64,000 bases of DNA from an uncultured Methanosarcinales archaeon (GTDB taxonomy: Archaea > Nanobdellota > Nanobdellia > Woesearchaeales > DSVV01). Positions within the stretch are counted from its first letter, which is position 1, and each line of letters begins with the position of its first letter. The notes beneath the pieces were generated by a model. That model was not told where the DNA came from. It ran no database searches and was given only the letters and a program-made list of their open reading frames with translations. The stretch is taken from positions 340,444-404,443 of the forward strand of contig CAYVNN010000002.1 of the NCBI GenBank assembly GCA_964453185.1, written 5' to 3'. Below, one piece after another: positions 2,590 through 30,336 of the stretch. The position numbers and the translations under genes are program-made.

Positions 2590-2970
2590 TTATCTTACTG
2601 AAACACTTGCACTGGATTTTGTTGCTCCAACTCCTGGTGCACTATGTTTTACTCTATTTCTTGTTAATACAAATTCACCTAAAACAAATCCAATCATTTC
2701 TTCTAGGATTAATATTGAAGTAAATTGTTTTCCGTTGTAAAGATCAATAGTTTTCCCTACCATATTAGGTAAAATTATCAGTTCTCTACAGTGTGTTTTA
2801 ACCTTATCTTTTTTCTCTAGCTTTTTAATTAATATTTTTTGAGTATCAGTAAATCCTCTTAATAATGATCTTCTTCTTCTTGAAGGTAATAATAATGCAA
2901 ATTCTTTTACACTTAACTCTTGTAATTCATTTAATGTTTTTCCTCGATATGTGTATTCCTTTTTTGCCAT
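2590..2970 (-). CDS. rps19: 30S ribosomal protein uS19
   Basis: YRGKTL, KTHCRE, YNGK and PGVGATKSS motifs. Confidence 0.97.
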   Translation of the reverse strand: MAKKEYTYRGKTLNELQELSVKEFALLLPSRRRRSLLRGFTDTQKILIKKLEKKDKVKTHCRELIILPNMVGKTIDLYNGKQFTSILILEEMIGFVLGEFVLTRNRVKHSAPGVGATKSSASVSVR

Positions 2971-2982
2971 TTTTTTTCACGT

Positions 2983-3693
2983 TTATTTCTTCTTACCTGT
3001 CCGTCTTGGTCTGATCTTACCAACATTAGCTCCTGCTGGCGCAAATCTTCTTGCAATTGTTGGACCTGGTTTATTACTTGTTGTAGTTCCACCAAATGGA
3101 TGGTCTACAGCATTCATTGCGACTCCGCTTACTCTTGGATATAATTTATTTCTTGCTCTCATCTTATGATAAACATTTCCTGCTTTCATAAGTGGTTTAT
3201 CAGTTCTTCCTCCACCAGCTACTACACCAATGGTTGCTCTGCATTTTTCATTGAAAGCTTTTTGTTTTTTTGAAGGCAATAATACCATAACTTGGTTTTT
3301 CTTTTTTGCAACAATTTTAGCTGTAACACCTGAACTTCTTACAAACTTTCCACCGTCGCCAGGAACACTTTCAATATTAAATATTGTTGTTCCTTCTGGT
3401 ATGTCTTTTAGCATTAATATATTACCTTTTCCTGTATTTTGTGAACATAATTCAATTTTATCTTTAACTTTCATTCCTTCGGGAGCAATCATTAAATTGA
3501 ATTCTCCTGTTTCATATTCCACAATTGCTAAAGGGGCTGTATGTCCCGGACATTTAACCAAGTCTTTAACAATTCCATTTAATCCTTCTGATCCAAAAGA
3601 TGGGTGTTTAGCTTTACCTACAAATCTATGACTAGGTGATTTATAAGGTCCTGATCCTTTTCCTCGTCTTTGTGTTATTAATCTTTTACCCAT
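2983..3693 (-). CDS. rpl2: 50S ribosomal protein uL2
   Basis: MGKRLITQRRGKG N-terminus and GVAMNAVDHPFGG. Confidence 0.98.
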   Translation of the reverse strand: MGKRLITQRRGKGSGPYKSPSHRFVGKAKHPSFGSEGLNGIVKDLVKCPGHTAPLAIVEYETGEFNLMIAPEGMKVKDKIELCSQNTGKGNILMLKDIPEGTTIFNIESVPGDGGKFVRSSGVTAKIVAKKKNQVMVLLPSKKQKAFNEKCRATIGVVAGGGRTDKPLMKAGNVYHKMRARNKLYPRVSGVAMNAVDHPFGGTTTSNKPGPTIARRFAPAGANVGKIRPRRTGKKK

Positions 3694-14173: not shown

Positions 14174-15334
14174 CTACGCAAGAACTTCTCCCAAAACTCT
14201 AACAACTTCATCAATATCTTCTTTAGAAATCACCAAGGGCGGCAATAACCTTATGCCTGTCAATCCTGCAATATTTGCCATAATCCCTCGTTCCATTAAT
14301 GCCTTCAAATAAGGTGTAGGTCTTTCTTTTAAATCAACAGCTATCATCAATCCAATTCCTCTAATTTCCTTAATCCTTGGACTATCAATCTTCCTTAACT
14401 CAGCAAGCAAATATTCTCCATTTTTTCTACTTTGCTCAACTAAATTCTTATCTTTAATAAAATCAATAACAGCTGATCCAGCTGCGCATGCGATTGGATT
14501 TCCACCAAAAGTAGTACCATGCATCATTCTTGGAATTTGGATTTTATCATTTATAGCAACAGCTCCCATTGCTATTCCTCCAGCTATTGACTTTGCCATT
14601 GTTATGATATCAGGAACTATTCCAGCATGTTCGCATGCAAAGAATTTACCTGTCCTTCCAAATCCAGTTTGAACTTCATCAATAACTAATATGATTCCTT
14701 TCTCATCACATAATTTTCTAACTTGTTTAAAATATTCCCAATCTCCTAAGATAATACCACCTTCGCCTTGGACTATTTCTAATATTATTGCTGCAGTGTT
14801 TTCACTAACATTATTCCTTAAATCTTCAATATCATTATAATTAACAAACTTGAATCCTTCTAATAATGGCATGAATGGTTTTCTATATTTTGGCTTATGT
14901 GTAGCACTCAATGCCCCCATTGTTCTTCCATGGAAACCTTTCTTTGCAGATATTATTTCTGTCCTTCCTGTAGCTACTCTTGCAAACTTGATTGCTGCTT
15001 CATTTGCTTCTGCCCCAGAATTACAAAGAAAGAATCTATTCAAACTTTCAGGTGTAACACTATTTAATTTCTCTAAGAATATTGCTCTAGCATCATTATA
15101 GAATATTTCAATACTAGTAATTATCTTTTGACTTTGTTCATTGATAGCTTTAATTACATATTCATTACAATGTCCAACATTAACACTACCAATTCCACTA
15201 ACACAATCAATATACTTCTTTCCATCAGAGTCATATATGTAGGCACCATGCCCCTTTACTATTGCAACCTCTCTTTTTGGATAAACTCCTGATGTGTATC
15301 TTCCTTCTATTTTGATTATATCTTTTGTATTCAT
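14174..15334 (-). CDS. lysJ: [LysW]-aminoadipate semialdehyde transaminase (class III PLP aminotransferase)
   Basis: NSGAEANEAAIK, GFHGRT, DEVQTGFGRTG and TMAKS motifs; lysW operon context. Start chosen after the GGTGA SD. Confidence 0.92.
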   Translation of the reverse strand: MNTKDIIKIEGRYTSGVYPKREVAIVKGHGAYIYDSDGKKYIDCVSGIGSVNVGHCNEYVIKAINEQSQKIITSIEIFYNDARAIFLEKLNSVTPESLNRFFLCNSGAEANEAAIKFARVATGRTEIISAKKGFHGRTMGALSATHKPKYRKPFMPLLEGFKFVNYNDIEDLRNNVSENTAAIILEIVQGEGGIILGDWEYFKQVRKLCDEKGIILVIDEVQTGFGRTGKFFACEHAGIVPDIITMAKSIAGGIAMGAVAINDKIQIPRMMHGTTFGGNPIACAAGSAVIDFIKDKNLVEQSRKNGEYLLAELRKIDSPRIKEIRGIGLMIAVDLKERPTPYLKALMERGIMANIAGLTGIRLLPPLVISKEDIDEVVRVLGEVLA

Positions 15335-15368
15335 TTTTTCACCCATTGCATTAGATCCAGCACCTTTG

Positions 15369-15507: not shown

Positions 15508-16299
15508 TTATTCAATTACAGTTCCATTTCCATTTAACGCATTTGTTACAGGATCTTCAACATTAGCAGATGCAAATATAACTCTTTTCACACCACCATC
15601 TAATGCTTCTTGTGCTCCCATTACTTTCTTCTTCATTGTGCCTTTTGCATATTCCATGCATTTATCTAACTCATTTCTATCAATATTCTTAATTAAACTG
15701 TTTGGATCATTAACATCTTTTAATAATCCTGGAACATTTGAAAATAATATTAATGTCTCTGCTTCTAATGATTGAGCAATTAATGATGCCATCCTATCTC
15801 CATCAATATTTATTGGTTCATTTTCATAACTAATTGCAGGTGGAGTTACTACTGGCATAAATCCATTATTCATTAGTAATTTTAATAATTCTACATTAAC
15901 TTTCTCAGGTTTACCTGTATATTGGTCTCTTAGCAACATCTTTTTTCCGTTTTCCATTATTTTTAATGTGGCTTTTCTCTTTCCTTCAACCAGTCTTCCA
16001 TCCATTCCTGACAATCCAATAGCATTAACACCAAAGTTTTGCATTTTTTCAACAATCATCTTATTCATTTTACCACAATATGCCATTTGGAACATTTCAA
16101 TGGTTTCTCTATCTGTAGCTCTACTTGTATATCCACTTACAGATTTAACCCATCTTGGTGGTTTACTTAATCCTTCAGATAACTTTCTTAACTCTTCTTT
16201 CCCACCATGTACTAAGATAAAATTCTCATGTCTAACTAAATCTGCTAGTAGATTATCATAATCTATTCCTTCTGCTCCTCCAACTTTAACTATTATCAT
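15508..16299 (-). CDS. lysZ: [LysW]-aminoadipate/glutamate kinase
   Basis: MIIVKVGG, LVHGG, GLSGMDG, NIDGDR and GTMKKK motifs; GGTGAT SD before ATG 16299. Confidence 0.93.
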   Translation of the reverse strand: MIIVKVGGAEGIDYDNLLADLVRHENFILVHGGKEELRKLSEGLSKPPRWVKSVSGYTSRATDRETIEMFQMAYCGKMNKMIVEKMQNFGVNAIGLSGMDGRLVEGKRKATLKIMENGKKMLLRDQYTGKPEKVNVELLKLLMNNGFMPVVTPPAISYENEPINIDGDRMASLIAQSLEAETLILFSNVPGLLKDVNDPNSLIKNIDRNELDKCMEYAKGTMKKKVMGAQEALDGGVKRVIFASANVEDPVTNALNGNGTVIE

Positions 16300-16315
16300 T
16301 CTATCACCATTTCCA

Positions 16316-16427
16316 GCATTTGTACTAGCGCCTTGACTCCACATTGAATAACACATTAATTCGCACTAAAAGTCGCGTTGCGTTATTCTTATTTCACTTA
16401 GTGCCAGAGTCGCTCTAGTACAAGTGC
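16316..16427. repeat. Family-1 hairpin element, flanked by a 13-bp direct repeat (16298-16310 / 16434-16446)
   Basis: gcatttgtactag-c-gc-ctt-gactc ... ca-gagtc-gc-t-ctagtacaagtgc; attctatcaccat occurs on both sides. Confidence 0.85.
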
Positions 16428-16451
16428 GTACTTATTCTATCACCATCAATT

Positions 16452-16562
16452 GCATTAATACCATCGCCTTGGCTCACTATATTATTAAAACATAATATAG
16501 CGTAAGGATACGGATCGTACTTATACTATATTATAATATCAGAGCCGCTGTGGTATTAATGC
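16452..16562. repeat. Family-1 hairpin element
   Basis: gcattaatacca-tc-gc-ctt-ggctc ... ca-gagcc-gc-tg-tggtattaatgc. Confidence 0.85.
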
Positions 16563-16564
16563 TT

Positions 16565-17200
16565 TTACTTTATTTCTTTTAATTCTCCATTTCTCATTAT
16601 TTTCTTAGTTAAATCTAAAAACTTTTCTGAACATACTATTCCATTTCCATATCTTATCTGAAAAAAGTCTTGTTCTTCTGAATATTTACAATAAACAAAT
16701 GTTTTTTCTTTGTTTGATATAATTATGTTCAATGCTCTGATATATCTTGTATGATCTTCTATATATTTGATTGCTTCTCTAACTCCTTCTTCAAATCCAT
16801 TCCTATCTATAAAACCTAAAAATATATTAAATATCTTATGTGCTCCTGTTTCACCTTCTGCTTTCATTCTAACTCCTTTCAATCTTCCATTGAATGCAAA
16901 AGCATACTCACCTGAAACAAAAGGCATATTATTTTCTTCATTGATTGTATGCAATCGGAGTGCATCTCTAACATGAGCAATCATCATCTTTGTTTTCATG
17001 TTCATCTTTTCTATGTCACATTTCCACATTGCTTTAACATCTCGATGTAGTTGCCATTCATTATTCTCATCTAAATAACAAAATCCCCATCCATCTCCTT
17101 GATCATGTTTAGCATTCTTTGCTATGTTTGCAAATACATCTAAGTAAGGCTTTATATTAATCTCTTCTTCTTCTTTCTTTACAAATAATAATCTACACAT
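16565..17200 (-). CDS. Class II glutamine amidotransferase / Ntn-hydrolase (EgtC/YafJ-like)
   Basis: Likely start MCRLL (catalytic Cys1) after a GGTG SD; DGWG, AHVR, NNMPF, FAFNG and CSE motifs. Confidence 0.88.
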   Translation of the reverse strand: MCRLLFVKKEEEEINIKPYLDVFANIAKNAKHDQGDGWGFCYLDENNEWQLHRDVKAMWKCDIEKMNMKTKMMIAHVRDALRLHTINEENNMPFVSGEYAFAFNGRLKGVRMKAEGETGAHKIFNIFLGFIDRNGFEEGVREAIKYIEDHTRYIRALNIIISNKEKTFVYCKYSEEQDFFQIRYGNGIVCSEKFLDLTKKIMRNGELKEIK

Positions 17201-17217
17201 TTTTACACCATTGATAA

Positions 17218-17305
17218 TAATACCACTGCCTTGGCTCACTATATTATTAAAACATATAGTGCAAAGCATGACAAATGCTTTGTTCACCTTAAGGCAAAGG
17301 CAGTA
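17218..17305. repeat. Chimeric family-1 hairpin element
   Basis: The left 39 bp match 16456-16494 at 37/39. The right half is the reverse complement of about 28590-28635. Confidence 0.8.
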
Positions 17306-17312
17306 AAACACT

Positions 17313-18356
17313 TTAAACAGGATGTAATCCAATAAAATCTAATCCAACATTCTCTTCAAAACCACACATTAGGTTCATACATTGCAATGCTTGTCCTGCT
17401 GCACCTTTCATTAAATTATCAATTGCACTTATCACAATTAATCTATTACTATTCTTATCTTTAACAAAACCTATATCACAAAAGTTTGTTCCCATCACAA
17501 TCTTTGGTTCAGGTAATCTATAGATTCCTTCTCTTTCATTAACTATTCTAATAAAAGGACTATTTCCATATTCTTCTCTATAAACTTTCCACACATCTTT
17601 AACACTTGTATTTGGATCTTTCAAAAAAACATGGCATGTTGTTGAAACTCCTCTAACCATTTCAATAGATGTTGCACTAAAATGAATATTGTCAACATTA
17701 AGTTCTTGTAACATTTCAGCTATATGTCTATGACTATGTGGTTTGTAACATCTAACTACTCCCGATCTTTCTGGATGATGTGAGCCAGGATTAACTTTAA
17801 CTCCACCTTGTGATGACCCTGCTTTTGCTTCAACTACTGTTTTCTCTACTTCAATTAATCCATGTTTATACAAAGGATATAAAGCTAATATTGTTGCAGT
17901 CGCATTACATCCAGCTGAAGCTACATATTTTGCATTCTTGATTTCCTCTCTATGTAACTCAGGAATTCCATAAATAAATTTATTAATTAATTCAGGTCTT
18001 GGATGGTCATAGTTATACCACCTTTCATATGCTTCTTTACTACTTAATCTAAAATCTCCACCTTTATCAATTATCATGTCTGCTTTTGTCATTAAAAAGT
18101 CCATTTTCTCTGAACTAACTCCGTGAGGTAAACCTAAAAATAATACATCGACTTTTTCTAAGTCATTGATTGAACTAAACTTTAGCATTGTTTGTTTTCT
18201 TAAGTTGGGATGTAATTTATGTACAAACTTTCCTGTATTTGATTCAGATGTTGCTTGAACAATTTCAACATTCGGATGTCTAAGTAAAAGTCTTAATAAT
18301 TCTCCTCCCGTATATCCGCTTGCTCCAACAATTGAAACTCTTATTTTATCTTTCAT
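17313..18356 (-). CDS. lysY: [LysW]-aminoadipyl/glutamyl-phosphate reductase (ArgC family)
   Basis: [25 protein letters not shown] and [12 protein letters not shown]. Confidence 0.94.
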
Positions 18357-19206
18357 CTTTTGCCACCTTTAAAACATAATCAACAACTTTTTCTGGAATA
18401 TTTACACCTGTTGTGTCTATACTATTTCTAAATTCCATTGTATAATTAACTTCATTAACAACTAATCCTTCTTCTGTTTCAAATAAATCAATTGCTACAA
18501 CACCACCACCTACTGCTTTTGCAGCTGCAACTGAAATTTCTGCCATTTCAGGTGTGACTGGACAATTTGTTGCTTTTCCTCCTCGTGAAGTATTTGTTAT
18601 CCAATGTTCAGATGTTCTATATATTGCTGCTATGCATTCATCACCAATAACAAAACTTCTAATATCTCTCTTCTTGGGTTTATCAATATGTTCTTGTATG
18701 TAAAAAATTGAATGATGATAACTACCTAATACTTGTTTATGTTCTAATATGCTTTCAGCAGTTTCTCTATCTTTAACTTTTGAAATTAATCTTCCCCATG
18801 AACCTACTGCGGGCTTTAAAACACAAGGATAACCTAATTTTTCCATTGCTTCTAAAGCAGATTCTGGTGTAAATGCAATAAAACAATTTGGAGTTGGCAC
18901 ATTATTTTTAATCAGTGCTTGTGTTGTTAAAAATTTGCTTCCACATACATCTGCAACTTTGTATGAATTTACAGTTTTTACACCTTTATCATTTAATATT
19001 TTTAATGCATGCAATGCTCTTGAATGATTAACACATCTTTCAATTACAACATCAACTTCATAATTAGGATTGTGTAAATCAAACATTATTTCTCTGTCAT
19101 CCATGTCAACTATCTCAACATTTTCTCTTTTCCTAAATTCATCTAGTAATAATTTTTCTTCTTTTCTAATTACTGATCTTAAAAAGCCAACTCTAATTTT
19201 TGTCAT
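18346..19206 (-). CDS. lysX: Alpha-aminoadipate/glutamate--LysW ligase (ATP-grasp)
   Basis: [23 protein letters not shown] and NEVNYTMEF; adjacent to lysW. Confidence 0.95.
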
Positions 19207-19371
19207 TTATTCACCCCAATCTTCTTCTTCTTGTGGTGCAGCTTCTAATGTAACTGGGTCTGTACTTCTAACTTCTAGTTCAACCCCACATTCTCCACAT
19301 TCAACTAACTCACCTTTTTCTACATTTTCATTCAATGGAACATCAGCTCCACATTCTGGACATTCTACCAT
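19207..19371 (-). CDS. lysW: Amino-group carrier protein LysW (54 aa, not in the ORF track)
   Basis: Manual translation MVECPECGADVPLNENVEKGELVECGECGVELEVRSTDPVTLEAAPQEEEDWGE, with two CxxC and the EDWGE terminus; GGAGG SD. Confidence 0.97.
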   Translation of the reverse strand: MVECPECGADVPLNENVEKGELVECGECGVELEVRSTDPVTLEAAPQEEEDWGE

Positions 19372-19397
19372 TTTATTTACCTCCAATTATACTACAA

Positions 19398-19536
19398 GCA
19401 ATAGTACCACTGCCTTGGCTCACTATCACATTTTATCATTGATAGCGTAAAGATACGGAACGTACAACGAATTGCTCATTGAGTCAGAGCCGCCGTGGTA
19501 CTTTTGTTCATATACCACTGCCTTGGCTCACTATCA
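19398..19536. repeat. Family-1 hairpin element (19398-19507) plus a duplicated left arm (19513-19536)
   Basis: gtaccac-t-gc-ctt-ggctc ... ca-gagcc-gc-c-gtggtac; taccactgccttggctcactatca is repeated exactly. Confidence 0.85.
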
Positions 19537-19656
19537 TTAATTATACTAGTATTCACTCATTAGATATAAACATTCTGTTATTATATTAACAAAACAATAT
19601 ATTTTTGTGATTTATTTATCTCATAAACCCAATCATACCACTCTTTAGTAGTTAAT

Positions 19657-22060: not shown

Positions 22061-23413
22061 ATGGAAAGAAAAATATTTGGTACAGATGGTATTAGAGGAA
22101 AGGTAAATGTTTATCCAATGACTGCTGAAACAATATTAAAATTAGGTATTGCAACAGCAAAAGTATTTACAAGAGATAATGGAAAGAGGCATAGAATAAT
22201 TATTGGCAAAGATACAAGGATTAGTGGTTATGTTTTTGAATATGCATTAGCTGCTGGTTTTTGTTCAATGGGTATGGATGTATATTTAGTTGGTCCATTA
22301 CCAACTCCAGCAATAGCTCACTTGACAAAATCAATGAAAGCAGATGCAGGAATTGTAATCTCTGCTTCACATAATCCTGCAGGTGATAATGGGATTAAGT
22401 TTTTCTCAGCAGATGGATATAAGCTTCCCGATTCTGTAGAAAAAGAAATTGAATCATTAATTTTTAACAATAAACTTTCAACAGAACATATTCCTATAGA
22501 AAAAGCAGGCAAAGCTTTTAAGATGGATGATGCAAAAGGAAGATATATTGAATTTGCAAAAGGAAGTGTAAATAATATTTCTTTACATGGTTTAAAAATT
22601 GTACTTGATTGTGCAAACGGAGCAGGTTATCAAGTTGCTCCATTAATTTTTCGAGAACTAGGAGCAGATGTTGTTGTTATGAATTATAAACCAGATGGTT
22701 TAAACATAAATGAAAATGCAGGTTCATTACATCCTGAATATCTTAGTGCAGCTGTTCTTAGTCATAATGCAGATGTAGGAATTGCTTTGGATGGTGATGC
22801 AGATAGAATAATCATGGTTGATGACAAAGGAGAAGTTGTTGATGGTGATGAAATCATGGCAATATCTGCTTTACATCTCAAAAGCATAAATCAACTTAAT
22901 AATAATACACTTGTTGCAACAGTCATGTCTAATCTTGGATTAGATTTAGCAATGAAAGAAAATGGTATTAATCTTATCAAAACAAAAGTTGGAGACAGGT
23001 ATGTTATTGAAGAAATGAAAAATAATGATTATATTCTTGGTGGAGAACAATCAGGACATCTTATTTTTAGTAAACATGCAACAACTGGTGATGGAATTAT
23101 TTCTGGTCTTCAAGTTTTAAAAATAATTAGAGAATCTAAGAAAAAACTTTCACAATTAAAACAATGTATGAAAAAGTATCCACAAATTTTAATTAATGTG
23201 GAAGTTAAAGAAAAGAAACCAGTTGAAGAACTTCAAGCTTATAAAAATATCCAAGAAATTGAATCAATTCTTGGAGAAAAAGGAAGAGTTCTAGTTCGTT
23301 ACTCAGGAACACAAAATAAATGTAGGGTAATGTTAGAAGGAGAAGATCAAAAACAAATTGAACAATATGCAAAAGATATTGTAAAAAAAATAAAAGAAGA
23401 GATAGGTGAATAG
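22061..23413 (+). CDS. glmM: Phosphoglucosamine mutase
   Basis: FGTDGIRG, SASHNP, DGDADR, GGEQSGH and RYSGT motifs. Confidence 0.96.
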   Translation: MERKIFGTDGIRGKVNVYPMTAETILKLGIATAKVFTRDNGKRHRIIIGKDTRISGYVFEYALAAGFCSMGMDVYLVGPLPTPAIAHLTKSMKADAGIVISASHNPAGDNGIKFFSADGYKLPDSVEKEIESLIFNNKLSTEHIPIEKAGKAFKMDDAKGRYIEFAKGSVNNISLHGLKIVLDCANGAGYQVAPLIFRELGADVVVMNYKPDGLNINENAGSLHPEYLSAAVLSHNADVGIALDGDADRIIMVDDKGEVVDGDEIMAISALHLKSINQLNNNTLVATVMSNLGLDLAMKENGINLIKTKVGDRYVIEEMKNNDYILGGEQSGHLIFSKHATTGDGIISGLQVLKIIRESKKKLSQLKQCMKKYPQILINVEVKEKKPVEELQAYKNIQEIESILGEKGRVLVRYSGTQNKCRVMLEGEDQKQIEQYAKDIVKKIKEEIGE

Positions 23414-23415
23414 AG

Positions 23416-24204
23416 ATGGAACAATCAGAATTTCTTAAAACAGCGATTAAAGCAGCAAAAGCTGCGGGAGAAATTATTAAACATTATAACAACGATGAAA
23501 TAAAAAGAAAGTCTGATAGTCCAGGTGATGTTGTTACACAAGCAGATCTTGAATCAGAAAAAGTAATAATTAAAATAATTAAAGAATCATTTCCTAATCA
23601 TAAATTTATATCAGAAGAATTTAACCCTGATGAAAAATTATCTTCAGATTATACTTGGATTATTGATCCAATTGATGGAACATTACCTTTTACATTAGGA
23701 TATAATTATTCAGCAGTTTCAATTGGATTATTTAAAGATAAACAACCAATCTTAGGTGTTATTTATCATCCACTTATGGAAATGTTATATTACGCAGAGA
23801 AAGGAAAAGGAGCGTTTATTGATAATAAACAAATCTCTGTTAATAATCAATCTATTTTATCAAAATCATTAATTTATTTTGGCTGTCCAATTTATCAAAG
23901 AAAAGAAGCAATTGAAAATATTTTACTCAAATTAGCAGACAAAATTGGTGGATTTATGTTTATTAGTTGTGCAACAAGTTCATTAACTAATATAGCTAGT
24001 GGTAAAACAGAATTATATATTCATTGTGGAAATAAAATATGGGATATAGCAGCAGGATATTTAATTATAAATGAAGCAGGTGGTAGGACAACAAATCTTA
24101 AAGGAGATCTTGTTGACTTTACAAAAGATAAAATAGATCATGTTTTTTCTAATGGAAAAATTCATGATGAAGTAATTAAAATAATAAATCAGGGTGATAA
24201 TTAA
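23416..24204 (+). CDS. suhB: Inositol monophosphatase family protein
   Basis: SEE, WIIDPIDGT and WDIAAG motifs. Confidence 0.9.
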   Translation: MEQSEFLKTAIKAAKAAGEIIKHYNNDEIKRKSDSPGDVVTQADLESEKVIIKIIKESFPNHKFISEEFNPDEKLSSDYTWIIDPIDGTLPFTLGYNYSAVSIGLFKDKQPILGVIYHPLMEMLYYAEKGKGAFIDNKQISVNNQSILSKSLIYFGCPIYQRKEAIENILLKLADKIGGFMFISCATSSLTNIASGKTELYIHCGNKIWDIAAGYLIINEAGGRTTNLKGDLVDFTKDKIDHVFSNGKIHDEVIKIINQGDN

Positions 24205-25394
24205 TGGTACAAGCAGTTTTACTTGCAGCAGGAAAATCAACAAGAACATGGCCTTTGACAGTAACAAGACCAAAACCATTGTTAAAAGTAGTTAATAAAA
24301 CAATAATAATGCATAATCTTGACCAACTTATTGGTCTAGTAGATGAAGCAATCATTGTTGTTGGTTTTAAACAAGAAATGATTAAAGAACATCTTAAAGA
24401 TTACAACAAGATTAAGATTACTTTTGTTGAACAAAAAGAACAATTAGGGACAGGACATGCATTAATGCAAGTAAAAGATAACATAGAAGACAAATTTATT
24501 TTTATGGTTGGAGATGATTTATTCTCAAAACAAGACTTAAAAAAACTTCTGGACCATGATTGGGCAGTTTTAGCAAAAGAAGTAGATGCTCCACAGAATT
24601 TTGGAATATTTGAATTAACAGAGGATAATTGTATTAAGTCTATTGAAGAAAAACCTAAAACTCCAAAATCAAATTTAGCTAATACTGCATGTTATATGTT
24701 TAAGAAAAAGATTTTTGCAATTGCAGAGAATCTTAAGAAAACAGAAAGAGGAGAATATGAAGCAACAGATGCATTAGGTGAGATAGCAAACTCAGAAAAA
24801 GTAAAATGTATTACTGCAGAAGAATGGATACCTATTACTTATCCCTGGAGTCTTCTTGAAGCTAATGCTTTTTTATTATCAAAATTAAGTGGAGAAATAA
24901 AAGGGGAAGTAGAACAAGGTGCAACATTAAAAGGAGAGGTTTTTGTTGATGAGGGAACAATTGTAAAAGCAGGAGCATATATTGAAGGGCCTGTTTATAT
25001 TGGTAAGGATTGCAAGGTTGGTCCTAATTGTTATATAAGACCATTTACAACATTATGTGATGGTTCAAAAGTCGGTAATGCAGTTGAAATTAAAAATACA
25101 ATTTTGTTTGACAATGCATCAGTGGGACATCTTTCTTATGTTGGTGATTCTGTTCTTGGGTATAATGTTAATTTTGGAGCTGGTACAATTACTGCAAATC
25201 TAAGACATGATAATTTAAATATTAAAACACCATTAAAGGGAGAGATGATTGATACTGGCAGAAGAAAATTAGGAACAATAATTGGTGATAATGTCCATAC
25301 AGGTATTAATACTTCAATCTATCCAGGAAGAAAGATATGGCCAGATCTAGGTACATTACCTGGAGCGATTGTTACAAAGGACATTACAAAATAA
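24204..25394 (+). CDS. glmU: Bifunctional sugar-1-phosphate nucleotidylyltransferase/acetyltransferase (archaeal GlmU)
   Basis: LAAGKSTR..PL...RPKPL followed by hexapeptide repeats and HLSYVGDS. Confidence 0.92.
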   Translation: MVQAVLLAAGKSTRTWPLTVTRPKPLLKVVNKTIIMHNLDQLIGLVDEAIIVVGFKQEMIKEHLKDYNKIKITFVEQKEQLGTGHALMQVKDNIEDKFIFMVGDDLFSKQDLKKLLDHDWAVLAKEVDAPQNFGIFELTEDNCIKSIEEKPKTPKSNLANTACYMFKKKIFAIAENLKKTERGEYEATDALGEIANSEKVKCITAEEWIPITYPWSLLEANAFLLSKLSGEIKGEVEQGATLKGEVFVDEGTIVKAGAYIEGPVYIGKDCKVGPNCYIRPFTTLCDGSKVGNAVEIKNTILFDNASVGHLSYVGDSVLGYNVNFGAGTITANLRHDNLNIKTPLKGEMIDTGRRKLGTIIGDNVHTGINTSIYPGRKIWPDLGTLPGAIVTKDITK

Positions 25395-26067
25395 TAGAGG
25401 GATTAATAATATGATAAAAGCAGTAATCTTTGATATGGATGGAGTAATAACAAGAACAGAAGATATTCATGCATTAACTTTTGATATGGTATTAAAAGAA
25501 TATGGTGCAGTTCGTTCTGAGGAATTAAAAAAGAAAGTTACAGGTATGCCTGGAAAGGCTGAGTGGGAACTCTACAAAAAAACATTTCCTAAAATAAAGG
25601 ATAATGTAGATACATTAAAAAAGAAAAGAGAAAAATATTATACAGAAAAAGCAAAAAAAATTCCATTATTTCCTGGATTTAGAGAATTATTTTTTAAGAT
25701 TAAAGAATTAAAACTAAAAGTTTCACTTACAACATCAAGTAATATGTTTTATATTAATTTAGGAATACCAAAAGAGATTAGAGAATCATTTGATGTGATT
25801 ACTACATCCGATGATGTTGTTAATGGTAAACCAGATCCTGAACCTTATCTTAGGTCTGTAAAATTATTAGGATTAAAAGCAGAAGAATGTGTTGTATTCG
25901 AGGATTCTTTAAATGGAATTAGATCGGCATTAGATGCAGGATGTTATTGTGTTGCTGTTACTAACTCTTTTACTAGAGAAGAAATACAAGAATTAAAACC
26001 AACAATGATAATTGATAGTTTAGAAGAAATAAATTTGGAGAAAATTAAAGCGATAGGTGATGAATAA
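25369..26067 (+). CDS. HAD-superfamily phosphatase (beta-PGM-like; likely start MIKAVIF)
   Basis: FDMDGV, GKPDPEPY and FEDS motifs. Confidence 0.9.
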   Translation: MLQRTLQNNRGINNMIKAVIFDMDGVITRTEDIHALTFDMVLKEYGAVRSEELKKKVTGMPGKAEWELYKKTFPKIKDNVDTLKKKREKYYTEKAKKIPLFPGFRELFFKIKELKLKVSLTTSSNMFYINLGIPKEIRESFDVITTSDDVVNGKPDPEPYLRSVKLLGLKAEECVVFEDSLNGIRSALDAGCYCVAVTNSFTREEIQELKPTMIIDSLEEINLEKIKAIGDE

Positions 26068-27818
26068 TGTGTGGTATAGTTGGAATTAATGCAAAAGAAG
26101 AATTTTCAATTAAATTTGAACTTATTAAATCATTAAAAAGATTAGAATACAGAGGTTATGACTCATCTGGTTTTGTAACAAAAAGTGGTTTTGTCCAAAA
26201 AGATATAGGATATATTCAAAAACTCATGGATGAAATTGATGAGACTCTAGTTACAAATATGGCTGTTGGCCATTCGCGTTGGGCAACACATGGTGGTGTA
26301 ACAAAACTAAATGCTCATCCTCATTTTAACAAAGAAAAAACTATTTTTGCAGTTCATAATGGTATTATTGAAAACTTTCAAGAGATAAAAAAAGAACTTC
26401 AAGAAAAAGGTTATGAATTTATTTCAGAAACAGATACAGAGGTTATTCCACATTTTTTTGATAATCAACTTAAGCAAGGAAATGACATGAAAACTTCAAT
26501 ACTTAACTTTATGAAGAAGGTTCATGGTACTTTTGCAATACTTTTATTTAAAAAAGATGAAAATATAATTTATGCATTAAAGAGAGATTCTCCTCTTGCA
26601 TTAGGTATTTGTGAAGATAAAATGATCTTAGGTTCTGATATTTACGCATTTAGTAATGAAACAGACAAAGCTATTTTCTTTGATGATAATGAATTTGCTA
26701 TAATTAAGGCAGATTCATATGAGTTTTATAATGACAAAGGGGATAAGATTGAGAAAGAGATAACTAAATTTGAATGGAGTGAAGAAGAAGAAACAATGGA
26801 AGATTTCCCCCATTATATGATTAAAGAAATCAAAGAACAGCCTAAGGTATCTAAACGATTATTAGATTCATTTAATACAACACAAAAATCTAATATTAAC
26901 AATTTTATTGATTTAATTAAACAACATAAAAAAATATTATTTTTAGCATGTGGGACAAGTTATCATGCTTCTCTTGTTGGAGCAATTGTTTTGAATAGAA
27001 TGGGTTTTGAAGCTAGAACAATTATTGCTTCAGAAGTTGAAAATTTTACTCAATTTAATAAAGATACATTAATTATTGCTATTTCCCAAAGTGGAGAAAC
27101 AATGGATGTAATTGTTCCAATGAAAAATGCAAGAGAAGCTGGAGCAAAAGTTGTTTCTATTGTTAATGTTCCCTTTTCAACAATTCAAAGACACAGTGAA
27201 GTTTCAATTGAAATATTAGCAGGTCAAGAGATTTGTGTAGCATCAACAAAAGCATTTACTAATCAAGTAATTGCTTTGCTTGAGATAGCTAGGAGATTAG
27301 GTTATGATATTAATTTATCTGATGTTCCTAAAAAAATTCAACAAACAATAGCATTAAATGAGGTAAAGGTTAAAGAAATTTCTAATGATTTAAACCAACA
27401 CCAAAATTTGTTTGTTCTAGGTAGAGGATTATCATACCCAATGTCAAGAGAGATTGCATTAAAGTTTAAAGAAATATCATATGTTCATGCAGAAGGTATG
27501 ATGGGTGGTGAACTTAAGCATGGAACAATTGCTTTAATTGAAGATGGTACCCCTGTTATTGGTTTGGTTCCTAATAAAGATCCTGAAATGTTATCAAATC
27601 TTAAAGAAGTTGAAGCAAGAGGAGCAAAGGTTTACATGATTATTAATACTGATATGGATACCGGATATGAAAAGTTTAGAGTACCTGAGTCAGACAATGC
27701 AGAGTTTGCTATCTATTCTTGTATAATTGGACATTTGTTGAGTTATTACATTGCAGTTCTTAGAGGGAATGAGATAGATAAACCACGTAATCTTGCTAAA
27801 TCGGTAACTGTATTATAG
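26067..27818 (+). CDS. glmS: Glutamine--fructose-6-phosphate transaminase
   Basis: MCGIVG, EYRGYDS, GHSRWATHG, SQSGET and PRNLAKSVT. Confidence 0.97.
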   Translation: MCGIVGINAKEEFSIKFELIKSLKRLEYRGYDSSGFVTKSGFVQKDIGYIQKLMDEIDETLVTNMAVGHSRWATHGGVTKLNAHPHFNKEKTIFAVHNGIIENFQEIKKELQEKGYEFISETDTEVIPHFFDNQLKQGNDMKTSILNFMKKVHGTFAILLFKKDENIIYALKRDSPLALGICEDKMILGSDIYAFSNETDKAIFFDDNEFAIIKADSYEFYNDKGDKIEKEITKFEWSEEEETMEDFPHYMIKEIKEQPKVSKRLLDSFNTTQKSNINNFIDLIKQHKKILFLACGTSYHASLVGAIVLNRMGFEARTIIASEVENFTQFNKDTLIIAISQSGETMDVIVPMKNAREAGAKVVSIVNVPFSTIQRHSEVSIEILAGQEICVASTKAFTNQVIALLEIARRLGYDINLSDVPKKIQQTIALNEVKVKEISNDLNQHQNLFVLGRGLSYPMSREIALKFKEISYVHAEGMMGGELKHGTIALIEDGTPVIGLVPNKDPEMLSNLKEVEARGAKVYMIINTDMDTGYEKFRVPESDNAEFAIYSCIIGHLLSYYIAVLRGNEIDKPRNLAKSVTVL

Positions 27819-27840
27819 ACATTTGTCAATCTTATATTTT

Positions 27841-28572
27841 TTACTTTTTCCCTTTTTTCCACAACAATTCAAAGTATTGTTTATAACCTTCTGCAACAGT
27901 TTTATCTTTAATTAGAATTCCATATGGATTTTCTGTGAATATTGCTATTCCTACATTATCTCCACAAATAATTGTTTCTTGTAATTGTTCATATTCAGGT
28001 TTAAGAAATTTTATTTTTGTTAAAACTTTTTTATTAAGCCATTTGCCAAAATCTCTGATTGTTTCATCAAACAATTGTCTTGACTTAATCTTTTTTGCAA
28101 TTCTTCTTGCATGTAAATTCTTCCACCATGTTTCTCCCATTATATCATGTGTAACTCTTGTTCCACCACCAAATGTATTATATTCTTTTCCACCTGTGTT
28201 TAAAATAATATTATACATCTCATTAATTCCTCTTTTTCCTCTAAATATAGTTCCACTTGTTTCTTGTTTTACAAATTTCTGCTTTTGTTTTAATTCAGGC
28301 AAAATTTGTTCAAATCTCTTTTTTTTATTTTCAATAAAATCATAGAAATTTTCAGGGTTAGTTGCTTGATATATCTTTTTTCTTCCTTCTAGTATATAAC
28401 TTATCAATCCTTTATCTATTAATGTGTTCAATGCTCTATGAACAACAGAATTATGTAAATTAGATTTCTCTAAAATAGCACCTGCACTACTATTACCTAA
28501 CTCTAACAATGCAATATATACCTTAATCTCTGCATTTGTTAATCCAAGATCCTCTAATATTGTTGTATCCAT
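27841..28572 (-). CDS. TrmB-family transcriptional regulator
   Basis: LEDLGLTNAEIKVYIALL wHTH; C-terminal YFELLW. Confidence 0.88.
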   Translation of the reverse strand: MDTTILEDLGLTNAEIKVYIALLELGNSSAGAILEKSNLHNSVVHRALNTLIDKGLISYILEGRKKIYQATNPENFYDFIENKKKRFEQILPELKQKQKFVKQETSGTIFRGKRGINEMYNIILNTGGKEYNTFGGGTRVTHDIMGETWWKNLHARRIAKKIKSRQLFDETIRDFGKWLNKKVLTKIKFLKPEYEQLQETIICGDNVGIAIFTENPYGILIKDKTVAEGYKQYFELLWKKGKK

Positions 28573-28584
28573 GTTTACTCAAAC

Positions 28585-28704
28585 AGATATACTGCCTTTG
28601 CCTTAAGATGAACGAAACGTTTGTCATGCTTGCACAATAAGGAACAAAAATCCATCATAATCATATCAAGATTTTTGTGAAGTGAATGGCCAGGCAGTAT
28701 ATCT
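28585..28704. repeat. Hairpin element related to family 1
   Basis: Perfect 13-bp arms agatatactgcct / aggcagtatatct. The left part is the reverse complement of about 17259-17305. Confidence 0.8.
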
Positions 28705-28815
28705 TATATATTAGATTTCATTATATATATTTAAATCTATCCATTATAGTCTCAAAAAAGAGGATAAAAGTTAATATAGATTTCTTGTTACCACCATGTT
28801 GTTGGGGTTAAATCT

Positions 28816-30336
28816 ATGTGTGGAATAGGGGCAATAATAGGAATTGAATCAATAAAACAAGATGATGTTATTAAATTAATGTCTCCAATTAAAACTAGAG
28901 GGGAGTCATTTAATGAACATGTTATATTAAAAACAGCAGTTCTTGCATGTAATAGATTAAAGATAGTTGATAGAGATCAAGCAAAACAACCTATATTTAA
29001 TGAGAAAAGAAACATATTTGCAGTGTTTAATGGTGAAATCTATAATTATAAAAAACTAAAATTAGAATTAGAACAATTGGGTCATATTTTTATAACTAAT
29101 TCTGATACAGAAGTTTTAGTGCATGGTTATGAAGAATGGAAAACAGATCTTCCGAAAAAGTTAGATGGGCAATTTGCCTTTGTAATTTATGATAAAACAA
29201 CAAATGAATTTATTGCTGCTAGAGATCCTTATGGTATTAAACCATTATTCTATGCAAAACATATTAACAAATTTTATTTTGCTTCTGAAATAAAACAACT
29301 AATTAGTTTTGTTGGTTCAATTAATCAACTAGAGCCAGGCCATTTGATAACAAATCAAGGAAAGGATAGATATTATTATTTACCTCATGAAGATATTGAA
29401 ACAATCAAGTTAAATATTAAACAATTATTTGATAAAGCAGTTAAAAAGAGAGTTCAAACAGATTTGCCTATTGCAGTTTTTCTTAGTGGTGGGATTGATA
29501 GTACTGCAGTTCTTGCAATAGCAAGAAAACATCATAAAAATGTAACTGCAATCATTGTTGGTAATATTTGGGAAAGCAATGATTCAGATGCAAAGTATGC
29601 AATTAAATATTGTAAAGAGAATAATATAAAATATAAACATTTTATTCCTCCAGATGAAAATGAATTATTTAATTTAGTTCCTGAAATAATTAAGATTACT
29701 GAAAGTTTTGAACCAAACATGGTAAAACAATCTGTTTTATCTTATTACATAGCAAAGATAGCAAAAGAATCTGGATTTAAAATTGCTCTTTGTGGTGAAG
29801 GTGCAGATGAAATTTTTGCAGGATATCCTGAATTTACTAATATAGATGTTATTAATATAAATGAATTAGCAATAAATTTTTTTAAAAATTTATATAGAAC
29901 ACAACTTCAAAGAGTTGATAAAACTTCTATGCATCATACTGTTGAGGTTAGAACACCATTTCTAGATTTTAATTTAGTCAATTATTGTTTAGAACTTCCT
30001 GGAGATTTAAAAGTAAAAAATAATGTAACAAAGTGGATTTTAAGAGAATCATTAAATGGTATGCTTCCTGATTATATTCTCTATAGAAAAAAAATTGTTC
30101 TTAGTGAAGGGATGGGTCATAAAGGTAATTCTTTAACAAAAGGAATGTTTACAGAAATAATATCTAATCTTGTAACAGATGAAGAATTAGATACTTACAA
30201 AAAAAAATATCCTAAACTAAATATTACAACAAAAGAAGAGGTGTATTATTTTAAACTATATTGTTCATTTGGATATGATAAATTAATTCTTGATACTCGT
30301 CCTGTTGTGAATAAAATACATAGTGCAGGTAAATAA
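28816..30336 (+). CDS. asnB: Asparagine synthetase B-like amidotransferase
   Basis: MCGIG, FNGEIYN, DGQFAF, LSGGIDS, GEGADEIFAGY and RVDK. Confidence 0.9.
   Translation: MCGIGAIIGIESIKQDDVIKLMSPIKTRGESFNEHVILKTAVLACNRLKIVDRDQAKQPIFNEKRNIFAVFNGEIYNYKKLKLELEQLGHIFITNSDTEVLVHGYEEWKTDLPKKLDGQFAFVIYDKTTNEFIAARDPYGIKPLFYAKHINKFYFASEIKQLISFVGSINQLEPGHLITNQGKDRYYYLPHEDIETIKLNIKQLFDKAVKKRVQTDLPIAVFLSGGIDSTAVLAIARKHHKNVTAIIVGNIWESNDSDAKYAIKYCKENNIKYKHFIPPDENELFNLVPEIIKITESFEPNMVKQSVLSYYIAKIAKESGFKIALCGEGADEIFAGYPEFTNIDVININELAINFFKNLYRTQLQRVDKTSMHHTVEVRTPFLDFNLVNYCLELPGDLKVKNNVTKWILRESLNGMLPDYILYRKKIVLSEGMGHKGNSLTKGMFTEIISNLVTDEELDTYKKKYPKLNITTKEEVYYFKLYCSFGYDKLILDTRPVVNKIHSAGK

Follow-up and report, generated by a model that had tools for sequence, protein, structure and literature searches.

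A hydrolase gene within a lysW operon

The window examined here, a stretch of 64,000 nucleotides from contig CAYVNN010000002.1, belongs to the genome of an uncultured archaeon (1.62 Mb in 9 contigs, 97.2% complete). According to the list of open reading frames (ORFs) of the window, six consecutive ORFs on its minus strand encode, in this order, the carrier protein LysW, the enzymes LysX and LysY, a stand-alone hydrolase of the N-terminal nucleophile (Ntn) type with Cys as residue 1, and the enzymes LysZ and LysJ. The hydrolase is the subject of this report. A first-pass annotation of the DNA had described it as a candidate non-orthologous replacement of LysK, the peptidase of family M20 that acts in the release step of the LysW pathway, and had found no M20 peptidase in the window.

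The first ORF, lysW (argW; 19207-19386), reads as a 59-residue protein when started at a TTG codon and ends in EEEDWGE. It matches PF21344 (Zn_ribbon_LysW) with 68.4 bits and TIGR01206 with 77.8 bits (cut-off, 53.2). In an alignment of the LysW family (A2) the C-terminal EDWG is invariant, and the same alignment suggests that translation starts at the ATG at 19371 rather than at the TTG. The gene lysX (argX; 18346-19206) encodes an ATP-grasp ligase with RimK and LysX_preATP_grasp domains (TIGR02144, 350 bits versus a cut-off of 275.6), and lysY (17313-18356) encodes a [LysW]-glutamyl/aminoadipyl-phosphate reductase of the ArgC family with semialdehyde dehydrogenase domains (TIGR01850, 396.8 bits versus 233.6). 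The hydrolase gene follows at 16565-17200. Its longest ORF spans 16565-17332, and a Met-Cys-Arg start that is conserved in the family lies at 17200 and yields a protein of 211 residues, for which a function as [LysW]-ornithine/lysine gamma-glutamyl amidohydrolase in the place of LysK is the probable one. The [LysW]-glutamate/aminoadipate kinase gene lysZ occupies 15508-16356 (AA_kinase; NF010659, 380.2 bits versus 223); since the family match covers residues 20 to 281, i.e., begins only at residue 20, translation probably sets in at the ATG at 16299. The last gene, lysJ (14174-15346), encodes a [LysW]-semialdehyde aminotransferase of the ArgD family (Aminotran_3, 399 bits; TIGR00707, 445.6 bits versus 410). 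Each of the five Lys proteins exceeds the cut-off of a curated NCBIfam model; with the LysJ model NF042418, LysJ scores 457 bits, below that model's cut-off of 700. The ORFs and family assignments at these positions thus confirm the gene order lysW-lysX-lysY-Ntn-lysZ-lysJ noted in the first-pass annotation.

Unusually long gaps separate the hydrolase gene from lysY (112 nucleotides) and from lysZ (approximately 265 nucleotides), and another lies upstream of lysW; all three are made up of copies of a dispersed repeat, approximately 110 to 125 nucleotides in length (17201-17312, 16300-16564, and 19387-19656, respectively). A blastn search of the genome contigs at E ≤ 1e-4 returned 32, 66, and 44 matches to these three segments. 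One copy folds as a long hairpin with a z value of -4.9, and the other two have values of -2.1 and -1.1. In relatives, the same operon genes abut or overlap without such gaps; it looks as if a hairpin repeat had been inserted into the operon.

The absence of M20 peptidases extends from the window to the whole genome. A genome-wide search with the M20 model PF01546 gave a single match of 29.8 bits on another contig and no M20 protein: the matching ORF encodes a 340-residue M42 aminopeptidase (PF05343, 296.6 bits), which scores 25.6 bits with the LysK model TIGR01902 (cut-off, 163.1). The search for lysK or argE that the first-pass annotation had called for therefore detected no genuine lysK anywhere in the genome. 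A whole-genome search for ArgJ found none either, so that with both M20 proteins and ArgJ missing no known enzyme for removing a protecting group is detectable. The M42 peptidase was considered as a stand-in for LysK and rejected, as its gene shows no linkage to the operon and a PF01546 match is missing altogether from 7 of 12 LysW-bearing relatives from the phylum of the window.

With respect to the product of the pathway, tblastn searches of the genome at E ≤ 1e-5 with related archaeal queries gave no match for homocitrate synthase, either homoaconitase subunit, or homoisocitrate dehydrogenase. In contrast, argG and argH were found (contig C1, approximately 423168-425606), as were a full-length argF-like gene (277.9 bits, slightly below the cut-off of 280.85) and the diaminopimelate decarboxylase gene lysA (309 bits, above the cut-off). 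Because the aminoadipate genes were not found and lysA, argG, argH, and the argF-like gene are present, the operon should supply ornithine for arginine rather than lysine, and lysine should be made via the diaminopimelate route. For the same reason, the substrate of LysX, which elsewhere may be aminoadipate, would here be glutamate, joined to the gamma-carboxyl group of the C-terminal Glu of LysW. Of the release of lysine or ornithine envisaged in the first-pass annotation, the ornithine part is thus supported by the arg genes and lysA, whereas the emphasis on lysine is not, given the missing aminoadipate genes. The argG and argH genes are 66% and 47% identical to the query copies, which lie beside the hydrolase-type cluster of a Cytophagia metagenome-assembled genome (MAG; locus L035), and since this identity is high for an archaeon and a bacterium, they may have been acquired horizontally. 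The sequencing runs listed, consulted with regard to expression, comprise eight DNA runs from two marine/seawater studies, with no RNA run among them.

Family, fold, and active site of the hydrolase

In Pfam, the 211-residue protein matches only PF13230 (GATase_4; 38.1 bits versus a cut-off of 23, residues 1 to 172), and no curated NCBIfam model names it. The EgtC model TIGR03442 gives a weak partial match restricted to residues 35 to 112 (28 bits versus 218.65). Of 170 candidates from a protein search, 80 are relatives at E ≤ 0.001; where the sources name them, they appear as "predicted" or "class II" glutamine amidotransferase or as hypothetical. All 80 related ORFs contain an MCR[LMIF] start, which supports Cys as residue 1 once Met is removed and upholds the earlier Cys1 assignment. 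In an alignment of 31 family members (A1), this Cys (residue 2 when Met is counted) is present in 30 sequences; the exception, P0029, lacks its first three residues. Invariant in A1 are Q34, G37, G39, W59, H76, R78, A80, N91, P93, F94, F101, F103, N104, G105, L107, G116, G119, A120, N158, and S191.

AlphaFold was used to model the hydrolase, with a mean predicted local distance difference test (pLDDT) value of 95.1 and a predicted template modeling (TM) score of 0.91. When the model was compared with the PDB using Foldseek, EgtC of the ergothioneine pathway ranked first (4zfl, 4zfj, and 4zfk; E approximately 1e-10, TM score of 0.77 to 0.79, identity of 14 to 16%), followed by 1te5, the glutaminase domain of GlmS (TM score of approximately 0.72), 3mdn, and PurF. 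The protein thus has the Ntn hydrolase fold of EgtC and of the glutaminase domains of GlmS and PurF. Like EgtC, it is a stand-alone enzyme with Cys1 (approximately 210 to 235 residues), and a gamma-glutamyl amide, the substrate of EgtC, is also its proposed substrate. Unlike EgtC, it fails the equivalog test of TIGR03442, it is encoded at this locus next to lysW, lysX, lysY, lysZ, and lysJ rather than egt genes, and its substrate would be a protein C terminus in which the alpha-amino group of the glutamyl residue is part of a peptide bond. In a profile search of PDB sequences, the best matches were 3mdn from Silicibacter pomeroyi (E value of 1.3e-08), EgtC (4.4e-06), and 1te5 from Pseudomonas aeruginosa (0.0018). 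3mdn and 1te5 share PF13230 with the hydrolase but are longer (274 and 257 residues, respectively) and functionally uncharacterized, and no link of theirs to LysW was found.

Putative catalytic residues were assigned by comparison with GlmS, whose gene lies in the same window (26067-27818, plus strand). An hhalign alignment, which ends at residue 109, places Cys2 on the nucleophile of GlmS, His76-x-Arg78 on the GHSRWA motif, and the FNG motif containing N104 and G105 on HNG. Of these residues, the Arg of GlmS and PurF contacts the alpha-carboxylate of the substrate and Asn-Gly provides the oxyanion hole; glutamine is further bound, through its free alpha-amino group, by the Asp of an [ST]D[ST]E motif. 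The region of the latter motif reads SETDTEV in GlmS and NSDTEV in the AsnB-like class II amidotransferase of the window (28816-30336, plus strand). The corresponding segment of the hydrolase reads GETGAHK, with the invariant Gly119 at the start of a helix (residues 119 to 134), so the Asp that binds the amino group in the glutamine-using relatives appears to be replaced by Gly119. Such a change from Asp to Gly is to be expected if the alpha-amino group of the glutamyl residue belongs to the LysW chain. Co-folding of the hydrolase (residues 2 to 211, with A1) and LysW (with A2) scored 0.12 relative to a mark of 0.32, which speaks neither for nor against binding.

The genes for GlmS and the AsnB-like protein belong to a plus-strand cluster for amino-sugar nucleotide synthesis (22061-30336). 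It also includes a GlmM-like mutase (22061-23413) and a GlmU-like nucleotidyltransferase/acetyltransferase (24204-25394), both on the plus strand and both named by inspection of the sequence and from annotated relatives in locus L003.

Linkage to lysW and distribution relative to LysK

A scan of one genome per species returned at least 596 pattern matches, at least 559 of which were confirmed as relatives of the hydrolase; the counts of loci given below refer to the best 80 of these. In 78 of the 80 loci a lys gene lies within 1.5 kb of the hydrolase gene on the same strand, and in both exceptions the hydrolase gene is located near the end of a contig. Recurring linkage to lysW clusters, which had been set beforehand as a test of the proposal, is therefore evident. 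All five lys genes are present in 46 of the 80 loci. The most common order is the one found in the window, lysW-lysX-lysY-Ntn-lysZ-lysJ (28 loci), and 11 more loci show this order with a homocitrate synthase gene inserted after lysW. Judging from the record titles, the loci are distributed over Ignavibacteriota, Bacteroidota, Pseudomonadota, Thermodesulfobacteriota, Myxococcota, Acidobacteriota, Gemmatimonadota, Planctomycetota, Calditrichota, KSB1, Binatota, and Chloroflexota, in addition to DPANN archaea; locus L056 points to the cultured Melioribacter roseus as one carrier. Two archaeal loci, L026 and L041, combine the hydrolase with a complete operon from aminoadipate synthesis to lysine in a single string, in the order lysW, homocitrate synthase, homoaconitase large and small subunits, homoisocitrate dehydrogenase, lysX, lysY, Ntn, lysZ, and lysJ, without an M20 gene. 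In the Cytophagia locus L035, a second LysX is added, together with argG and argH.

No LysK was detected in the surroundings of the hydrolase gene in the loci searched. None of 51 flanking ORFs from 12 loci is an M20 gene according to NCBIfam annotation, and a LysK query from a Chloroflexota locus matched no ORF at E < 1e-8 in any of the 80 loci (within approximately 8 kb). At the level of genomes, 50 of those carrying the 80 loci, mostly ones with long contigs, were searched with TIGR01902. No protein exceeded the cut-off in any of the 50 (best score, 100.4 bits versus 163.1), while the model passed in 4 of 14 control genomes.

Within the phylum of the window, 401 genomes were sampled, all at least 90% complete. 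LysW occurs in 13 of these, and matches of 234 to 303 bits to the A1 profile occur in exactly the same 13 genomes, in 12 of them on the contig of lysW and within 8 kb of it. The next-best hydrolase match, of 185 bits, is found in genome G188, in which no LysW was found; the 11-kb contig concerned reads lysY-lysZ-lysJ-Ntn and starts inside lysY, so that lysW probably lies beyond the contig end. On this contig (L145; G188:C28:1-11076), the hydrolase gene follows lysJ, which is the slot usual for LysK in LysK-type clusters, and lysJ itself is seemingly split into two ORFs (2064-2645 and 2650-3027). A further 30 genomes of the phylum contain weaker A1 matches of 25 to 110 bits in ORFs of approximately 230 to 310 residues (e.g., G161:C3:231639-232304) and have no LysW match. 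They fall mostly into family f12 (26 of its 42 genomes), and these longer paralogues represent a second, as yet uncharacterized group of GATase_4-like proteins in DPANN archaea. In the 5 of 12 LysW-bearing relatives that do have a PF01546 match, the proteins concerned are generic M20 members of the ArgE/DapE family, scoring at most 118 bits with TIGR01902 and at most 128 bits with NF003367 (cut-off, 363).

The reverse situation is seen in Chloroflexota. Among 301 genomes, LysW was matched in 111 and exceeded the cut-off in 91; both tallies include two unpublished genomes, G723 and G624, on which nothing else rests. Of the 89 published genomes above the cut-off, 80 were searched further (those left out are G553, G724, G470, G644, G740, G598, G733, G731, and G676). 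LysK scores above the cut-off in 77 genomes; at E ≤ 1e-25 the number rises to 79, the matches in the two additional genomes being split across two frames or contigs. G451 is the only genome with the hydrolase and also the only one without any LysK match, so that 79 genomes have LysK only, 1 has the hydrolase only, and none has both or neither. Judging from the coordinates, LysK is encoded on the lysW contig within approximately 10 kb in 52 of the 77 genomes, and 15 loci picked for this proximity typically show the order W-X-Y-Z-J-K or W-X-K-X-Y-Z-J. Ten Chloroflexota loci (L111, L114, L116, L117, L128, L133, L136, L137, L140, and L142) have two or three lysW genes in tandem, with three in G523; in genomes with tandem lysW, the coordinates place the LysK match at a distance or on another contig.

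Taken together, the mutual exclusivity that the first-pass annotation had proposed to check is found in all three samples: none of the 50 hydrolase-bearing genomes has LysK above the cut-off, hydrolase and LysW coincide in 13 genomes of the phylum, and the ratio in Chloroflexota is 79 to 1. This one-for-one exchange of hydrolase and LysK suggests that both serve the same step.

The C terminus of the carrier provides independent support at the sequence level. Of the 60 LysW ORFs found across the 80 hydrolase-type loci, 40 have EDWGE as their C terminus, as does that of the window, and 20 have EDWGQ; the latter, with loci of the L021 or L026 type as examples, come from Pseudomonadota, Ignavibacteriota, Planctomycetota, Acidobacteriota, Thermodesulfobacteriota, and Woesearchaeota. 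By comparison, all 51 LysW copies in 40 LysK-type Chloroflexota genomes (the top 40 by LysW score) end in EDWGE. LysX, an ATP-grasp ligase, requires a gamma-carboxylate, and for this reason a Gln-ended carrier should be inert unless its gamma-amide is hydrolyzed. The gamma-amide of Gln is formally the same type of bond as that in LysW-gamma-Glu-NH-R. The restriction of Gln-ended LysW to hydrolase-type loci thus argues for an enzyme that acts at the gamma position of the last LysW residue.

Proposed release reaction and its alternatives

Based on linkage, the absence of LysK, and the complementary distribution, comparative genomics strongly supports the hydrolase as a candidate non-orthologous replacement of LysK. 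Specifically, we assign a probability of roughly 0.8 to the reading that the 211-residue Cys Ntn amidohydrolase is the release enzyme of the LysW pathway and takes the place of the M20 peptidase. From the data described above we infer its substrate, the roles of its residues, and its catalytic cycle as follows. LysX would attach glutamate to LysW, and LysZ, LysY, and LysJ would convert it to LysW-gamma-ornithine. After removal of the initiator Met, the thiolate of Cys1 would attack the carbonyl of the gamma-glutamyl isopeptide bond through which the completed amino acid is held, by its alpha-amino group, on the C-terminal Glu of LysW, with Asn104-Gly105 serving as the oxyanion hole, Arg78 holding the free alpha-carboxylate of the terminal Glu, and the invariant Gly119 leaving space for the LysW polypeptide. 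The leaving amino acid would be ornithine in the present archaeon and lysine in relatives with aminoadipate genes. Water would then resolve the gamma-glutamyl thioester and regenerate LysW for reuse, and the argF-like enzyme, ArgG, and ArgH would convert ornithine to arginine. In relatives with a Gln-ended LysW, an initial round of this chemistry would turn the Gln into Glu by deamidation, making the carrier active.

The findings support an enzyme that works like LysK without belonging to its family, being instead a member of the class II amidotransferase (Ntn) superfamily that most resembles EgtC. With LysK (ArgE/DapE family; TIGR01902 and NF003367), it shares the predicted reaction, the position in the pathway, and the location in lysW clusters. 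The two are not homologous: the hydrolase has no M20 domain and would use Cys1 as a nucleophile in place of the metal center of LysK, the two never occur together in the genomes searched, and Gln-ended carriers are found only with the hydrolase type. The logic is analogous to that of ornithine acetyltransferase, ArgJ (PF01960), which is also of the Ntn type and, as the end step of a pathway of protected intermediates, strips ornithine of its N-protecting group. In both cases the last step would be the deprotection of ornithine, although ArgJ differs in its fold, its Thr nucleophile, its acetyl protecting group, and in catalyzing a transfer rather than a hydrolysis.

The ArgJ comparison raises the possibility of a gamma-glutamyl transferase, in which the thioester between Cys1 and LysW would be taken over by the next glutamate or aminoadipate, so that the carrier would be reloaded without ATP and LysX would merely prime the cycle. 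The evidence from context and fold applies to this scheme as well, Cys Ntn enzymes form acyl-thioesters that are in principle open to aminolysis, and the Gln-ended LysW proteins of 20 of 60 loci could enter such a cycle directly. No sequence feature distinguishes transfer from hydrolysis; we nevertheless regard the transferase as quite unlikely, since LysX is retained (the ORF scan detects it in 58 loci out of 80, and most of the remaining loci lie on contigs that break off before reaching the upstream portion of the cluster) and the PDB entries of EgtC, the structure nearest to the model, call that enzyme an amidohydrolase. The broader notion that the enzyme reshapes the logic of the pathway, with ATP-free recharging as in ArgJ and with Gln-ended LysW as a pre-activated carrier that enters by loss of ammonia, is unlikely.

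Alternatively, the hydrolase might act only in maturation or proofreading, by deamidating the C-terminal Gln or stripping misloaded amino acids, and another peptidase would perform the release. The confinement of Gln-ended LysW to hydrolase-type loci and the generic M20 proteins in many bacterial genomes would suit such a division of labor. However, 40 of the 60 linked LysW proteins, including that of the window, already end in Glu, so maturation is not the general role; moreover, neither the genome of the window nor 7 of the 12 relatives have any M20 protein, and the one-for-one exchange with LysK points to the same step for both. A function restricted to maturation or proofreading is therefore very unlikely. 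That the protein is an ordinary glutaminase subunit feeding ammonia to a partner, as its Pfam family (glutamine amidotransferases class-II) and its database name (predicted glutamine amidotransferase) might imply, or an unrelated gamma-glutamyl hydrolase hitchhiking in the operon, is hardly credible in view of the lack of a synthase domain, a partner gene, and any ammonia-using step in the operon, the apparent replacement by Gly of the Asp that would bind the amino group of free glutamine, the fact that its position is conserved in more than 10 phyla, and the exclusive co-occurrence with LysW in 401 genomes.

Several points weigh against the hydrolase as a general substitute for LysK. Generic M20 proteins of the ArgE/DapE family, weaker matches that are below every equivalog cut-off, occur in 46 of the 50 hydrolase-bearing genomes, and in these, as in the 5 of 12 relatives mentioned above, an M20 enzyme might after all carry out the release. 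Completeness is not reported for the 50 hydrolase-bearing genomes or for the 80 Chloroflexota genomes. At four sites that hardly vary within the family, the hydrolase of the window has a residue other than that of most members (His32, Ala57, Val77, and Asp79). The equivalence of Gly119 and the amino-binding Asp is a correspondence of motif and secondary structure and stays provisional, because the profile alignments (with PDB sequences, GlmS, and AsnB) stop near residue 108. Finally, because related genomes are not independent, there were fewer separate events than the counts suggest: a quick maximum-likelihood tree built from 79 LysY sequences needs only 2 changes between hydrolase and LysK type, compared to a mean of 14 with shuffled labels.

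In the same tree, the LysY of a hydrolase-type Dehalococcoidia locus (L065) is placed inside a hydrolase-type clade of Desulfobacterota and Myxococcota with a support of 100, which suggests either that entire clusters were transferred or that the sequence was binned wrongly. LysY of the window groups with the Woesearchaeota sequences of L026 and L041, and those of L003 and L004 adjoin LysK-type Chloroflexota sequences. The two proteins nearest to the hydrolase are encoded in L003 and L004 (69% and 50% identity, respectively), which come from MAGs of 1.7 and 1.3 Mb labeled Methanosarcinales and Rickettsiales; beside their DPANN-like gene content these labels appear odd, and they may be taxonomic misassignments. 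The operon of the window has a mosaic appearance: LysX, the hydrolase, LysZ, and LysJ score best against L003 (533, 324, 430, and 615 bits, respectively), and LysY scores best against L041 (555 bits) and L026 (525 bits), with 471 bits against L003.

A full-text literature search, with subscription journals and supplements outside its scope, found no paper that ties LysW to an Ntn or class II amidotransferase enzyme. In the excerpts seen of PMC4045070 and PMC545781, the names lysW and lysX are used for a transporter and a regulator that are unrelated; the excerpt of the 2026 GapMind preprint (10.1101/2024.10.14.618325) mentions LysW only for LysZ, that of PMC3249071 merely lists LysX and the Ntn superfamily separately, and that of PMC12998189 assigns the hydrolase role to LysK without offering another candidate.

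The LysW carrier pathway serves as a textbook example of the joint evolution of lysine and arginine biosynthesis, and its release step is attributed, in the excerpts of the literature consulted, only to the M20 peptidase LysK. If the proposed function is correct, an apparent gap in the pathway would be closed in at least 559 loci of many bacterial phyla and of DPANN archaea, the annotation "class II glutamine amidotransferase" would be corrected, and auxotrophies of uncultured microbes could be better predicted. It would also explain carriers that are encoded with a terminal Gln and should be dead for LysX, and it would introduce a new kind of enzyme that acts on the gamma-glutamyl amide of a protein C terminus. 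For the organism itself, it would mean that a small marine archaeon of a group usually seen as host dependent could make its own ornithine and arginine.

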